A stretch of DNA of 64,000 bases, taken from Mycobacteriales bacterium. Lineage in GTDB: Bacteria; Actinomycetota; Actinomycetes; BP-191. The notes under the pieces are model-generated. The model did no database searches. It was not told where the DNA came from and saw nothing but the letters and a program-made list of their open reading frames with translations. The translations under genes were made by a program, and so were the position numbers. Below are positions 1 to 12,439 of this stretch, piece by piece. Numbering within the stretch: position 1 is the stretch's first letter; each line of letters begins with the position of its first letter. The stretch lies in the NCBI GenBank assembly GCA_035714365.1, contig DASTMB010000014.1, forward strand, positions 55,720 to 119,719, given 5' to 3'.

Positions 1-1
1 C

Positions 2-3000
2 GACACCGACGTCGACACCGCCACGCTCACGGCCGGCAACGCGAGCACGCCGGCCCACGGCACGGTCACGCTCAACGCGGACGGCTCGTTCACCTACACG
101 CCGGCCTCCGGCTACCTCGGCGCCGACTCGTTCACCTACGACGCGAGCGACGGCACCGCGACCGACACCGCGACGGTGAACATCACGGTCGCCCCGCCGA
201 ACGCCACGCCGACCGCCGACGCGACGAGCGGGAGCGGCAACGAGGACGGCGGCGCGATCACGGTCACGCTGACCGGCCACGACGACGACGGCGACGCGCT
301 GACGTTCACGCCGGGCACCGCCACGAACGGCCTCGTCTCCGTCCCCGCCTCGGTGAGCTGTGACGCGAACACGCCGAGCACCTGCACGGCGACCGTCACC
401 TACACGCCGAACGCCGACTACTACGGCTCCGACTCGTTCACCTACACGGTCAACGACGGCACGATCGACTCCGCGCCGGCGACCGCGAACATCACGGTGA
501 ACCCGGTCAACGACGTGCCGAGCTTCACCAAGGGCGGCGACCAGACCGTCCTGGAGGACGCGGGCGCGCAGACCGTGACCGGCTGGGCCACCGCGATCAG
601 CACCGGTCCGGCGAACGAGTCGGCGCAGACGCCGTCGTTCGAGGTCACCGGCACCACCAACAACGGGCTGTTCTCGGTCCTCCCGGCGGTCGCCGCGAAC
701 GGTGACCTGACCTACACGCCGGCGGTGAACGCCAACGGCACCGCCACCGTGTCGGTCCGCATCACGGACGACGGTGGCACGGCCAACGGCGGCGCCGACA
801 CGAGCGGGACGCAGACGTTCACGATCACCGTGACCGCGGTCAACGACGCGCCGAGCTTCACCAAGGGCGCCGACGAGTCGGTCCTCGAGGACGGGGGCGT
901 CCAGAGCGTCAGCAACTGGGCCACGGCGATCAGCAAGGGCCCGGCGGACGAGTCCGCGCAGACCCTGTCGTTCACCGTGACCAACGACAACAACGCGCTG
1001 TTCGTGACCCAGCCGGCCGTCAGCCCGACGGGCACGCTCACCTACACCTCGGCGGCGAACGCCGTCGGCTCGGCGACCGTGACCGTCTCGCTGTCTGACA
1101 ACGGCGGCACCGCCAACAACGGCGACGACACGAGCGACGCGCAGACGTTCACGATCACCGTCGGCGCGGTCAACGACGCGCCGTCGTTCACCACCGCCGG
1201 CAACCAGACCGTGCTCGAGGACGCGGGCGCGCAGACGGTCAACGGCTTCGTCACCTCGACCAGCGCCGGCCCGGCCGACGAGTCCGGCCAGACCGTGACC
1301 GTCTCGACGGTGCTGCCGACGAGCAACAACGCGCTGTTCTCGGTGCTGCCGTCGATCAGCAACGGCACCCTGTCGTACACGCCGGCGCCGGACGCCAACG
1401 GCTCCGCCACCGTCACCGTGAAGGCGACGGACGACGGCGGCACCGCCAACGGCGGCGCCGACACGAGCGGGACGCAGACGGTCACGATCACCGTCACCGC
1501 GGTCAACGACGCCCCGAGCTTCACCAAGGGCGGCGACGAGTCGGTCAACGAGGACGCGGGCGTGCAGAGCGTCAGCAACTGGGCCACCGCGATCAGCAAG
1601 GGCCCGGCGAACGAGTCCGCGCAGACCGTGTCGTTCAACGTCACCAACGACAACAACGGCCTGTTCGCGACGCAGCCGGCGGTCTCCCCGACCGGCACGC
1701 TGACCTACACCTCGGCGCCGAACAAGTGGGGCACCGCGACGGTCACCGTCTCGATCTCCGACAACGGCGGCACCGCCAACGGCGGCGTCGACACCAGCCC
1801 GACCCAGACGTTCCTCATCACCGTCGCGCCGGTCAACGACGCGCCGGTCGCCGCGGCCAAGGCGTACACGGTCCAGGCGAACATGAAGATCAGCCTGGGG
1901 GGCCTGCTCGTCGGCGCCACCGACCCGAACGACGTCGCCGGCGACGCGACGTGGAACCCGACGTTCACGGTCGGCTCCATCACGCCGGGCGCGAGCTGCA
2001 TCGGCTGCACGGTCAGCAACGTCAACGCCGCCAACGGCACGTTCGACTTCGACCCGCCGGCGGGCGGCACCGGTACCTACTCGGTGACCTACACGGTCGT
2101 CGACAGCGGCTACCCGTCGCCGGGCGTCGCCAGCGCGCCGCAGACCATCACGTTCACGGTCAACGGCCCGGTCATCTGGTTCGTCGACTCGACGCTCGGC
2201 GCCGCGGGCACCGGCCGACTGTCCGCGCCGTTCAACACCCTCGCCGCCGCCACGACGGCGATGGGCACGAACACCAACCAGCGGATCTTCGTCGACAACG
2301 GCAACGTCAGCGGCAACGTCACGCTCCAGACCGACGGCTGGCTGCTCTCCGACGCCGCGACCGACGCCGGCGGCTTCGACGGCCTCATGGGCATCAGCCC
2401 GCCCGCGGGCACCATCGCCCGCCCGTCGATCGCGAGCGGCACGCAGCGCAACCTGACGGGCACCGTCACCGTGGGCACCAACTCGCGGGTGCGCGGCTTC
2501 AACCTGACGCCGAGCTCCGGCAGCGCCGGCCTCGTCGGCTCGGGCAAGAACAACCTGACCGTCAACCAGCTCAACATCACCACGACGAACGCGCGCGGTG
2601 TCGACATCCAGAACTCGCAGGGGAGCACCTTCAGCATCACGCGGGTCACCACGACCGGCGCGACGAGCGGCATCTTCCTCTCGACCGTCAACACCACGAC
2701 GCCGGGTTCGTTCACCGTCACCGGCACGGGCACGGCCGACAGCGGCGGCATCATCAGCACGTCGAGCGGCAACGGCATCCACCTGGACGGCGTCACGAAC
2801 GTGTCGCTGTCGCGCATGAAGGTGACCGGCGGGTCCGCGCACGGCATCTACGGCAACAACCTGACGACGTTCGCGCTCGACAACTCGACGATCTCCGCGA
2901 ACGGCACGAACATCGCGCTCGACCACAGCGGCATCTACATGACGAACCTGCTGGGCACGTCGACGATGTCGAACCTCGACATCTCCGGCTCCCGCGAGCA

Positions 3001-3934
3001 CAACGTCTTCGTCCGGAACTCCTCCGGCACGTCGACGCTGACGCTGAGCAACTCGAACATCCATGACAACAACTCCACCGAGGGCTCCAACGGCGTCGCC
3101 GTCATCTCACAGCTCGGCGGCTCGGCGACGATGACGTTCACCTCGACGAGCAACACGTTCACCAACAACCGGTCCTCGGCCCTGCTGATCTTCGGCGAGT
3201 CGAGCCAGAAGATGACCGCGACCGTCACCGGCGGCACGTGGAGCGGCAACGGCGTCGGCATGGACATCGCGTCCAACGGCCCCGGCGGCCTCGCGTTCAA
3301 CATCAGCGGCGGCACGATCACGAGCGGCGCCAGCAGCGGCTCGCCGATCGTCCTCACGAAGGGCAGCAGCAGCAGCGGGTCGGGCGCCAACGCGTTCGCC
3401 GGCACCGTCACCGGGATGAACATCACGCACAACAACTCCGGCATCTCGTCCGGCATCTGGATGCACGGCGAGGGCGGTGGCGAGGCGCGGATCGCGGTGA
3501 CGAACAACACCGTCACCAACTCCGGCCTGTACGGCATCGAGGCGTCGTTCGGCAACACGCTCGGCGGCTCGCAGAACGTCCAGCTCACCATCACCGGCAA
3601 CAACGCCACGACGGTGAACGCACCGTCCGCGTGCCCCAGCGGCTGCGCCGTGGCAGCGATCCTGGCCGAGGCCGGCACCGTCACCGGTGACACCACGGCG
3701 ATGTGCGCGCACATCTCGGGGAACACCGCGTCGAACCCGGACGGTGCGGACATCCGCGTCCGGACGATCCAGAACACGTCGTTCCGCCTGCCGAGCTACA
3801 GCGGCGGCAACGCGGACACGGCGGCGGTCGCGAGCTTCCTCCAGGCGCAGAACGCAGGGTCGACCGCGACGGCGTTCAAGAGCAGCACGACCGGCTTCAC
3901 GGGCGGCTCGCCCAGCACCTGCACGGCTCCGTAA
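2..3934 (+). CDS. Giant secreted repeat protein, 5' partial (frame is open from window position 2). Tandem ~100-aa cadherin/Ig-like repeats with the recurring 'PVNDAPSFTKGGD' motif, then a right-handed parallel beta-helix (pectate-lyase-like cap 'PVIWFVDSTLGAAGTGRLSAPFNTL', repeated 'NNxxTxNxxxGI' turns).
   Basis: Single uninterrupted ORF in frame 2 from the window start. Internal repeats are seen directly in the translation. It ends with ...FTGGSPSTCTAP. Confidence 0.8.
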   Translation, partial: DTDVDTATLTAGNASTPAHGTVTLNADGSFTYTPASGYLGADSFTYDASDGTATDTATVNITVAPPNATPTADATSGSGNEDGGAITVTLTGHDDDGDALTFTPGTATNGLVSVPASVSCDANTPSTCTATVTYTPNADYYGSDSFTYTVNDGTIDSAPATANITVNPVNDVPSFTKGGDQTVLEDAGAQTVTGWATAISTGPANESAQTPSFEVTGTTNNGLFSVLPAVAANGDLTYTPAVNANGTATVSVRITDDGGTANGGADTSGTQTFTITVTAVNDAPSFTKGADESVLEDGGVQSVSNWATAISKGPADESAQTLSFTVTNDNNALFVTQPAVSPTGTLTYTSAANAVGSATVTVSLSDNGGTANNGDDTSDAQTFTITVGAVNDAPSFTTAGNQTVLEDAGAQTVNGFVTSTSAGPADESGQTVTVSTVLPTSNNALFSVLPSISNGTLSYTPAPDANGSATVTVKATDDGGTANGGADTSGTQTVTITVTAVNDAPSFTKGGDESVNEDAGVQSVSNWATAISKGPANESAQTVSFNVTNDNNGLFATQPAVSPTGTLTYTSAPNKWGTATVTVSISDNGGTANGGVDTSPTQTFLITVAPVNDAPVAAAKAYTVQANMKISLGGLLVGATDPNDVAGDATWNPTFTVGSITPGASCIGCTVSNVNAANGTFDFDPPAGGTGTYSVTYTVVDSGYPSPGVASAPQTITFTVNGPVIWFVDSTLGAAGTGRLSAPFNTLAAATTAMGTNTNQRIFVDNGNVSGNVTLQTDGWLLSDAATDAGGFDGLMGISPPAGTIARPSIASGTQRNLTGTVTVGTNSRVRGFNLTPSSGSAGLVGSGKNNLTVNQLNITTTNARGVDIQNSQGSTFSITRVTTTGATSGIFLSTVNTTTPGSFTVTGTGTADSGGIISTSSGNGIHLDGVTNVSLSRMKVTGGSAHGIYGNNLTTFALDNSTISANGTNIALDHSGIYMTNLLGTSTMSNLDISGSREHNVFVRNSSGTSTLTLSNSNIHDNNSTEGSNGVAVISQLGGSATMTFTSTSNTFTNNRSSALLIFGESSQKMTATVTGGTWSGNGVGMDIASNGPGGLAFNISGGTITSGASSGSPIVLTKGSSSSGSGANAFAGTVTGMNITHNNSGISSGIWMHGEGGGEARIAVTNNTVTNSGLYGIEASFGNTLGGSQNVQLTITGNNATTVNAPSACPSGCAVAAILAEAGTVTGDTTAMCAHISGNTASNPDGADIRVRTIQNTSFRLPSYSGGNADTAAVASFLQAQNAGSTATAFKSSTTGFTGGSPSTCTAP

Positions 3935-12023: not shown

Positions 12024-12040
12024 TCGAAGGAGTGGTCCAC

Positions 12041-12439
12041 ATGGTGGCGCAACCGTCACGCCGTTCGGTGCTGCGGGCCGCTGTGATGCTCGCGGCGGCG
12101 GCGTCCACGCCCCTGCTCGGGGCCCAGCGGGCGTTCTCCCTCGCGCCGGGGGAGGGCGGCGCTCTGCGACGCTCGGCGTTCCGGCCGCACGTCGGGTCGT
12201 CGTTCGCGCTCGCCGCGAGCGGCGTGACGTACCGCGCCAAGCTGGTGAAGGTCGCCGACGTCCGCACCGCGGCGCGCGGGCACGAGAAGAAGTTCCGGCT
12301 GATGTTCGACGTCCGGGGTAGTGGGCCGGGCGCGGGGACGTACCGGTTCTCCCACCCGTCGTACGGCGCCGTGGACCTGTTCGTCAGCCCGGTCGGCGCC
12401 GAGGCCGGGGCGTACGAGGCCGTGGTGGACGCGGGCTAG
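12041..12439 (+). CDS. Small secreted hypothetical protein with a twin-arginine (Tat) signal. Homolog of the 6005-6304 protein.
   Basis: GAAGGAG RBS 9 nt upstream. 'SRRSVLRAAVMLAAAAS' Tat motif. Confidence 0.6.
   Translation: MVAQPSRRSVLRAAVMLAAAASTPLLGAQRAFSLAPGEGGALRRSAFRPHVGSSFALAASGVTYRAKLVKVADVRTAARGHEKKFRLMFDVRGSGPGAGTYRFSHPSYGAVDLFVSPVGAEAGAYEAVVDAG

Follow-up and report, generated by a model that had tools for sequence, protein, structure and literature searches.

A cross-phylum module of tail-collar, giant beta-helix, GNAT and DUF6916 proteins, with a doubled cassette in a Mycobacteriales bacterium

The subject of this work is a group of genes located at the beginning of a 64,000-nt stretch of contig DASTMB010000014.1 (GCA_035714365.1, Mycobacteriales bacterium), the whole of which is called here the window, and whose positions are used for all the coordinates that carry no locus label. 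Two consecutive cassettes are found there, each composed of a gene for a giant secreted protein (G1 and G2) followed by three genes for small tail-collar proteins of the A, B and C subfamilies. Comparison of sequences and gene neighbourhoods shows a six-gene module (giant, A, B, C, a GNAT acetyltransferase and a DUF6916 protein) that is conserved in at least nine bacterial phyla, and of which the giant and the triad have been doubled in this lineage. Our favoured reading, to which we give an even chance of being right as a whole, is that a conserved cellular module was doubled in this particular lineage and would act through a head made of the collar proteins together with the giant.

Conservation and doubling of the module

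For the census, one genome per species was scanned with an alignment of the six collar proteins of the window, and 516 confirmed loci were obtained. Neighbourhoods were counted in the best 80 of these 516 loci by comparing the window proteins with all their open reading frames (ORFs), many truncated contigs being included; L-numbers in the text are the labels of matched genome loci or contigs, and P-numbers those of proteins from a search with B2. The 80 loci belong to Acidobacteriota, Actinomycetota, Gemmatimonadota, Verrucomicrobiota, Bacteroidota, Pseudomonadota, Myxococcota, Chloroflexota and one Heliomicrobium. The A-B-C order was kept in 66 of them, a GNAT homologue (40-68% identity) was present in 73 and DUF6916 in 68, with GNAT and DUF6916 always adjacent to each other. 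An adjacent giant ORF matching G1 or G2 was detected in 64 loci, the homology covering the beta-helix part in 54 (25-33% identity), and all five components were found together in 48. When the search was reversed, starting from distant DUF6916 proteins, three out of three adjoined GNAT and collar genes (three, two and three of the latter called, respectively). The recurrent linkage of triad and giant that the initial annotation had proposed to look for across Actinobacteria is therefore upheld by the neighbourhood mapping, but that scope was too narrow for a module that spans at least nine phyla. No description of the six-gene set was found in the literature on DUF6916, tail collar, MdpB/COG4675 and GNAT plus tandem-95.

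As judged from these neighbourhoods, GNAT and DUF6916 are core members of the module that the earlier work had missed. It had described a four-gene unit occurring twice in tandem; the two copies of giant plus triad do lie at the coordinates then given, which agreed with those re-read here from the sequence, whereas the limit to four genes does not hold, as GNAT and DUF6916 belong to the module too. A sigma-54 activator, a Ser/Thr kinase and an extracytoplasmic function (ECF) sigma factor were rejected as core members, since they are confined to Pyrinomonadaceae loci and reflect the synteny of that lineage.

The doubling was analyzed by comparing the two cassettes with each other and with related loci. 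Each collar protein is closest to its positional counterpart in the other cassette (A1-A2 55.5%, B1-B2 54.8% and C1-C2 58.4% identity, with BLAST E-values of 1e-55 to 1e-64 for collar pairs), every other pairing giving 35-48%, which bears out the positional paralogy noticed before. Beyond the window, A2 is 50-60% identical to A-position proteins of other phyla, B2 56-67% to B-position proteins of 80 genomes and C2 55-68% to C-position proteins elsewhere; overall, positional collar proteins are 55-68% identical across phyla, much closer than to the other two positions in their own genome, which implies that the split into A, B and C predates the spread of the module. At the DNA level the two window triads are 70.4% identical, and the two cassettes are old paralogues and not the product of a recent duplication.

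The locus L165, from a related metagenome organism, has the same flanks as the window (PHP, PAP2/DAGK, PAP2, S8 peptidase and histidine kinase) with a single cassette in between, ordered giant-A-B-C-GNAT-D1 (opposite strand)-D2 (with a Tat signal), in such a way that the window corresponds to that arrangement plus an extra G2-A2-B2-C2 between D1 and D2. By this comparison the second unit of giant and triad is a lineage-specific insertion. The idea that the unit was duplicated as a whole with its order preserved stands as far as the joint copying of the four genes is concerned, given the single cassette of L165, but the A-B-C order cannot serve as evidence for it, because that order is a trait of the whole family. 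A doubled form is also found in a Frankiaceae metagenome-assembled genome (L073), whose giants are 65-68% identical to G1 and G2, and the duplication is thus older than the split between both organisms. The triad of the first cassette has diverged further than that of the second, since the collar proteins of L165 and of all the 80 loci resemble A2, B2 and C2 more closely than A1, B1 and C1. Despite the doubled giant and triad, the window has a single copy of GNAT and of each of the two DUF6916 genes (D1 and D2), which are presumably shared by both cassettes. The G+C content at third codon positions (GC3) of all module genes is 0.93-0.99, like that of neighbouring housekeeping genes, and a recent horizontal transfer is consequently unsupported by codon usage. 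A doubled cassette in which one triad evolves fast gives a natural example of how such a device diversifies.

Table 1. Genes of the module and its two cassettes in the window.
Gene	Position	Strand	Product and features
G1	2..3934	+	C-terminal 1310 residues of a secreted giant of 2432 residues; gene cut by the window edge
A1	3976..4473	+	Collar protein, A subfamily, 165 residues; PF07484 E 6e-27; no signal peptide; HxH present
B1	4484..4993	+	Collar protein, B subfamily, 169 residues; PF07484 E 3e-26
C1	5003..5536	+	Collar protein, C subfamily, 177 residues; PF07484 E 1e-25
GNAT acetyltransferase	5533..6012	+	159 residues; Pfam Acetyltransf_7/1/10 above cut-offs
D1	6005..6304	-	DUF6916 (PF21880), 99 residues, 96.3 bits; no signal peptide
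G2	6526..10416	+	Secreted giant, 1296 residues; signal peptide, Ig-like domains, cadherin-like/tandem-95 repeats, C-terminal beta-helix
A2	10475..10978	+	Collar protein, A subfamily, 167 residues; PF07484 E 3e-27; sub-threshold Gp10_C match
B2	10987..11490	+	Collar protein, B subfamily, 167 residues; PF07484 E 7e-28
C2	11502..12023	+	Collar protein, C subfamily, 173 residues; PF07484 E 5e-26
D2	12041..12439	+	DUF6916, 132 residues; PF21880 E 1e-15, 57.6 bits; N-terminal Tat-like signal (SRRSVL)

As shown in Table 1, the triads (3976-5536 and 10475-12023) consist of three consecutive PF07484 genes on the same strand, each encoding a protein of around 19 kDa, with intergenic gaps of 8-11 nt and a GGAGG-like ribosome-binding site before each collar gene. 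The start of the GNAT gene overlaps the stop of C1 at 5533-5536 (ATGA), suggesting translational coupling, and the GNAT gene converges with D1, their 3' ends overlapping by 8 bp (6005-6012), a convergent GNAT/DUF6916 pair that was seen in many other loci. A scan for promoters and terminators was uninformative in this high-GC DNA. The flanking genes encode CoA-binding, PHP, PAP2/DAGK, S8 peptidase and histidine kinase proteins, with a 451-residue protein and a PETase-like hydrolase upstream. The gene for the 451-residue protein lies just upstream of G1 and divergent from it, outside the window (554-1909, minus strand, of L164, the source metagenome contig), and its product has no Pfam or PHROG match. 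In Pyrinomonadaceae only, several regulators recur upstream of the module (e.g. at L007 5604-7481 and L026 2293-5232); read by eye, they are a sigma-54 activator with an FHA domain, a Ser/Thr kinase carrying beta-propeller repeats, an ECF sigma factor and a phosphoribosyltransferase.

The collar proteins and their predicted assembly

The assignment of the six small proteins to the tail-collar family, made at first from the letters alone, was corroborated by a Pfam profile search, in which all of them matched PF07484 (Collar) with 89.7-96.8 bits across the full 57-residue model, far above its gathering score of 24 bits; no further collar genes were found in the window. The collar domain begins at residue 6-8 of chains of 165-177 residues, leaving room for neither an N-terminal shaft nor a signal peptide, and the long N-terminal shaft that characterizes tips of the T4 gp12/gp37 type is absent from all six. 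Two motifs, HxH (H91 and H93 in B2 numbering) and PHxN, are invariant in the six proteins and at least 90% conserved per subfamily across the 80 loci. The collar profile matches the T4 gp12 entries 5iv5, 1pdi and 1ocy and the long tail fibre 8kec (E 1e-9), and the HxH motif aligns with that of 8kec. In T4 gp12 and gp37, a metal ion (Zn or Fe) sits on the axis of the trimer, bound by the HxH motifs of its three chains. The conservation profile shows a conserved collar and conserved last 30 residues, with variable residues 95-140 between them, a pattern that we read as that of a conserved scaffold carrying a changeable binding surface. NCBIfam gave no name for the collar proteins, nor for those of DUF6916.

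An exhaustive search with B2 yielded 50,424 representative clusters at E <=1e-3 and 2,540 at E <=1e-30. Among the top matches there are natural single chains with two (around 340 residues) or three (around 510-560 residues) complete modules of collar and head joined by short linkers. HxH and PHxN are both retained in every module of the three-module fusions P0112, P0114, P0118 and P0110, in which three Collar domains and Gp10_C are recognised by Pfam. Such single-chain fusions are a classic sign that separately encoded relatives assemble together, in a ratio that here would be 1:1:1. Several of the fused relatives carry signal peptides of the general secretory (Sec) pathway or twin-arginine translocation (Tat) signals, which indicates that members of the wider family are exported, some of them probably folded. 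In the virophage DSLV2, three consecutive PF07484 proteins co-purify as a 1:1:1 heterotrimer of around 55 kDa, modelled as a tip like that of gp37 (PMC12724248). The suggestion of a heterotrimeric fibre, present already in the initial annotation, gains support from both the natural three-module fusions and the published virophage complex.

According to the model that we propose, one chain each of A, B and C would make up a compact, shaft-less heterotrimeric head like the tips of T4 gp12, gp37 and gp10, the three HxH motifs would hold one metal ion on the pseudo-threefold axis, and the variable distal surface (about residues 95-140) would bind the ligand. We consider it probable that A:B:C forms a shaft-less, metal-centred heterotrimeric head with a variable ligand-binding face of this kind. 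The three proteins could instead make three separate homotrimeric lectin-like heads of different specificities, co-expressed with no joint complex. Phage collar proteins such as T4 gp12 and gp37 are homotrimers, and it is to these that the Protein Data Bank (PDB) matches lead; the variable middle region, in addition, differs between A, B and C. A homotrimer model of one of the three virophage proteins was fairly stable too (PMC12724248), but the virophage triad itself co-purified 1:1:1, single chains with two and three modules exist, and the stoichiometry and order are fixed, with one protein per subfamily, in at least nine phyla, so that separate homotrimers look unlikely to us.

Other arrangements of collar modules were observed. 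P0119, P0122, P0138, P0213 and others make a separate secreted family of around 470 residues, in which a signal peptide is followed by the motif of the end of the collar module, GGxQPHxNxQPSLxLNYII, and then by five or six shortened collar repeats, in what looks like a permuted or tandem-collar architecture. A contig classed as viral in IMG/VR (2848685470_000004; L089 1-5456) is filled along its 5.4 kb by nine collar genes, arranged as three triads one after the other.

Giants, accessory proteins and predicted function

The full-length G1 (2432 residues), carried by L164, starts with a signal peptide. Both G1 and G2 match Big_9, Cadherin_4, Cadherin_5 and Beta_helix in Pfam and the tandem-95 repeat in NCBIfam (tand_rpt_95), and they are 46-47% identical to each other over about 980 residues. 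Their C-terminal domain has the parallel (right-handed, pectin-lyase-like) beta-helix fold, for which the best structural matches are capsule depolymerases and tailspikes. Signal peptides are carried by the giants, and in the Bacteroidota-like contig L168 the partner is a 675-residue protein with a sorting domain of the type IX secretion system (T9SS). The giants end in Cys-x-x-Pro in the window (3908-3934 and 10390-10416) and in many loci (e.g. GGAACAAP, STCTAP), and this ending is conserved across phyla, as is an upstream Cys of the beta-helix giants (C533 of the modelled domain); both cysteines together suggest a disulfide capping the beta-helix. In giants of Pyrinomonadaceae/Acidobacteriota (e.g. 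L015 11301-17945, L027, L039, L047 and L051) the beta-helix is in the middle of the protein, and the C-terminus shows a conserved motif such as GSFKFFFNVEALP, which may be a sorting or anchoring signal.

Regarding the accessory proteins, the acetyl-CoA motif of GNAT enzymes (R/Q-x-x-G-x-G/A) was read in the sequence as FRGRGIGQG, and the predicted structure of D1 is a small six-stranded barrel (predicted local distance difference test, pLDDT, 89). Both D1 and D2 lie above the PF21880 gathering score of 27 bits. DUF6916 proteins occur in two recurrent forms, one of around 100 residues without signal, present in most loci, and another with a twin-arginine leader, often encoded beside the first. 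The N-terminus of D2 holds SRRSVLRAAVMLAAAAS, a Tat-like sequence that reaches 18 bits with Pfam TAT_signal, below the cut-off of 22.7; clear twin-arginine signals were found on orthologues of this form in L004, L005, L006, L033, L046, L053, L073, L075 and L165.

In the reading that we favour, the collar head and the giant would work outside the cytoplasm as a device that recognises or adheres to a glycan or a cell-surface ligand, the giant supplying reach and a second, polysaccharide-binding beta-helix. As the collar proteins have no signal peptide, we infer their surface location from the signal peptides of the giants (and the T9SS domain in L168), the Sec or Tat signals of the fused relatives and the Tat-like N-terminus of D2. 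A collar protein is present in the exoproteome of Ruegeria (PMC4949626), and COG4675 proteins were detected in soil metaproteomes. On these data we would put such an extracytoplasmic partnership of head and giant just short of an even chance. Maturation or escort of the trimer would fall to GNAT and DUF6916: GNAT might N-acetylate it, and in genomes with a Tat-signal DUF6916 the folded trimer, which has no signal of its own, might cross the membrane on that protein as piggy-back Tat cargo. We offer these accessory roles tentatively and hold them as rather doubtful. Doubtful to a higher degree is the complete picture of an unrecognised cross-phylum surface apparatus, in which a phage-derived, metal-centred A:B:C tip would fold in the cytoplasm, be modified by GNAT, be exported on the Tat form of DUF6916 and dock on the tailspike-like giant; if true, this would be a domesticated phage receptor-binding system turned into a cell-borne organelle of free-living soil bacteria.

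Several observations weigh against the favoured reading. With respect to export, no signal peptide is present on any A, B or C protein of the window or of the 80 loci, their conservation beginning at residue 1, and a Tat-type DUF6916 lies within 10 kb in only around 8 of the 80 loci, so that Tat piggy-backing cannot be the general route. With respect to the giant, 16 of the 80 loci show none (many of those contigs being truncated), its beta-helix fold is common to enzymes, adhesins and NosD alike, and no D, E, K, R or H was conserved at 75% or more in the helix body in an alignment of 31 sequences that is shallow and partly fragmentary. The nearest PDB and NCBIfam relatives of GNAT are N-terminal protein acetyltransferases, with weak matches, and fold comparisons of DUF6916 were unspecific and uninformative. 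The collar proteins, finally, with 55-68% identity across phyla, are unusually conserved for receptor-binding proteins.

Other explanations of the module were weighed against the same data. The resemblance of A, B and C to PF07484 and to tail and tail-fibre families of PHROG (DUF6916, the beta-helix domain and the upstream 451-residue protein have no PHROG match), and the existence of IMG/VR contigs with triads would fit collar genes that are remnants of a prophage or tailocin, i.e. orphan tail-fibre genes with an incidental duplication. However, such IMG/VR contigs are only around ten and short, several with the same GNAT, typical viral contigs having single collar domains. In 50,697 deposited phage genomes B2 had no match better than around 40% identity, nearly always at one place per genome and within longer minor tail or fibre proteins, whereas at least nine phyla retain the six-gene set at 55-68% identity. 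The absence of accompanying sheath, tube and baseplate genes, pointed out in the initial annotation, was confirmed, as the flanks carry cellular genes only: sheath, tube, baseplate, tape-measure and lysis genes were found neither within 10 kb on either side nor among the genes that recur beside the module in the 80 loci, and capsid or integrase genes were found on neither side of the module. Together with the host-like GC3, these results led us to reject a prophage or tailocin remnant, which we regard as extremely improbable. A known defence system was also rejected, as seven module proteins gave no match with the PADLOC anti-phage defence models.

A role in antagonism or predation would make the trimer a targeting part for a competitor glycan, the beta-helix of the giant a part that degrades or penetrates capsule or wall, and GNAT a self-protection or modification enzyme. 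The structural matches with capsule depolymerases and tailspikes, the variable tip region and the enrichment of the module in soil groups, some with predatory or polymer-degrading members (Myxococcota, Saprospiraceae, Acidobacteriota, Longimicrobiaceae), agree with this role, and GNATs serve as immunity enzymes in other systems. Nevertheless, the module showed no toxin domain, no immunity pair and no secretion system of its own, the beta-helix shows no conserved catalytic residues in the shallow, partly fragmentary alignment mentioned above, and arms-race targeting proteins are typically far less conserved than A, B and C, which leaves antagonism with a low probability. An intracellular role of the collar trimer with GNAT and DUF6916, e.g. 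as a complex for sensing or modification, is likewise improbable; the giant would then be no physical partner but a passenger of a regulatory or evolutionary kind. The lack of signal peptides in A, B, C, GNAT and the common form of DUF6916 would be explained in that way, and GNAT and DUF6916 (73 and 68 of the 80 loci) are steadier than the giant (64), the core being found also on short contigs without it. But a giant with a homologous beta-helix is directly adjacent in 54 loci of different phyla, Sec or Tat signals occur on relatives with fused modules, the Tat-signal DUF6916 recurs, the PADLOC models found no match, and all the solved relatives of the collar fold found here are phage tail-fibre proteins. 

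Further away in the window, a 1333-residue protein with a fungalysin-type M36 metallopeptidase domain (28006-32007, minus strand) is very large and probably secreted, and is not linked to the module. A TPR-repeat protein of 1004 residues (34821-37835, plus strand) lies in a stretch of lower G+C (34-38 kb, 0.66). Another such stretch (46-56 kb, 0.67-0.68 versus 0.72-0.77 elsewhere) precedes the gene for a 1511-residue protein with a weak Sacsin-domain match (56045-60580, plus strand), which stands beside a convergent gene for a 948-residue DEAD/ResIII helicase (61084-63930, minus strand); this last region is possibly an acquired island.

Comparison with known systems

The closest parallel to the arrangement described here is the triad of virophage DSLV2 (PMC12724248), also made of three adjacent genes on the same strand for shaft-less collar proteins of around 19 kDa, with a conserved collar and a variable patch on the head; the window triads share its size, domain content and conservation pattern. 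The DSLV2 triad, however, is part of a virus particle, adjoins capsid genes and has been proposed to dock on the capsid, whereas the window triads have cellular neighbours and are linked to GNAT, DUF6916 and a giant, in such a way that the likeness is one of arrangement and probable assembly and does not extend to the genomic context. With T4 gp12, gp37 and gp10 the window proteins share the PF07484 collar, the HxH motif and similarity to Gp10_C, but the T4 proteins are homotrimers of chains of 527-1026 residues with shafts, placed in a baseplate, and those of the window are three different chains of 165-177 residues that contain the tip only.

Among cellular proteins, the nearest named relatives are the COG4675/MdpB "microcystin-dependent protein" and RhiB of Rhizobium, which are also small PF07484 proteins. 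In the rhiABC(D) operon, which is under quorum-sensing control, only RhiB has a collar domain, RhiA and RhiC being without Pfam domain, and no partnership with a giant, GNAT or DUF6916 has been described for it. The domain of the giant is 10-13% identical to the beta-helices of tailspikes and depolymerases (Klebsiella phage K64-1 S2-4, K1 lyase, cyanophage Pam1 tailspike and phi29 gp12). Unlike these, it ends a monomeric repeat protein of 1300-2400 residues with a Sec signal and does not form a virion trimer, and adhesins (PfbA, Vag8), epimerases and NosD gave equally good structural matches. The reuse of a collar domain as a cellular surface-recognition tip is also known from the PilV-collar fusion of a type IV pilus shufflon (PMC9881135). 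In that system, by contrast, a single fused pilin is diversified by DNA inversion, and there is no triad, GNAT, DUF6916 or giant.

Collar-domain fibre tips are known as receptor-binding parts of viruses. Here receptor-binding parts of phage type are constant members of a cellular module that has accessory genes of its own, and the cellular triads are more conserved than the phage versions, with 55-68% identity across phyla versus around 40% to any cultured phage. Learning the ligand and the route of the signal-less subunits would give a role to DUF6916, would explain a long-standing COG of unknown function (MdpB/COG4675), and would show how bacteria reuse the receptor-binding architecture of phages.

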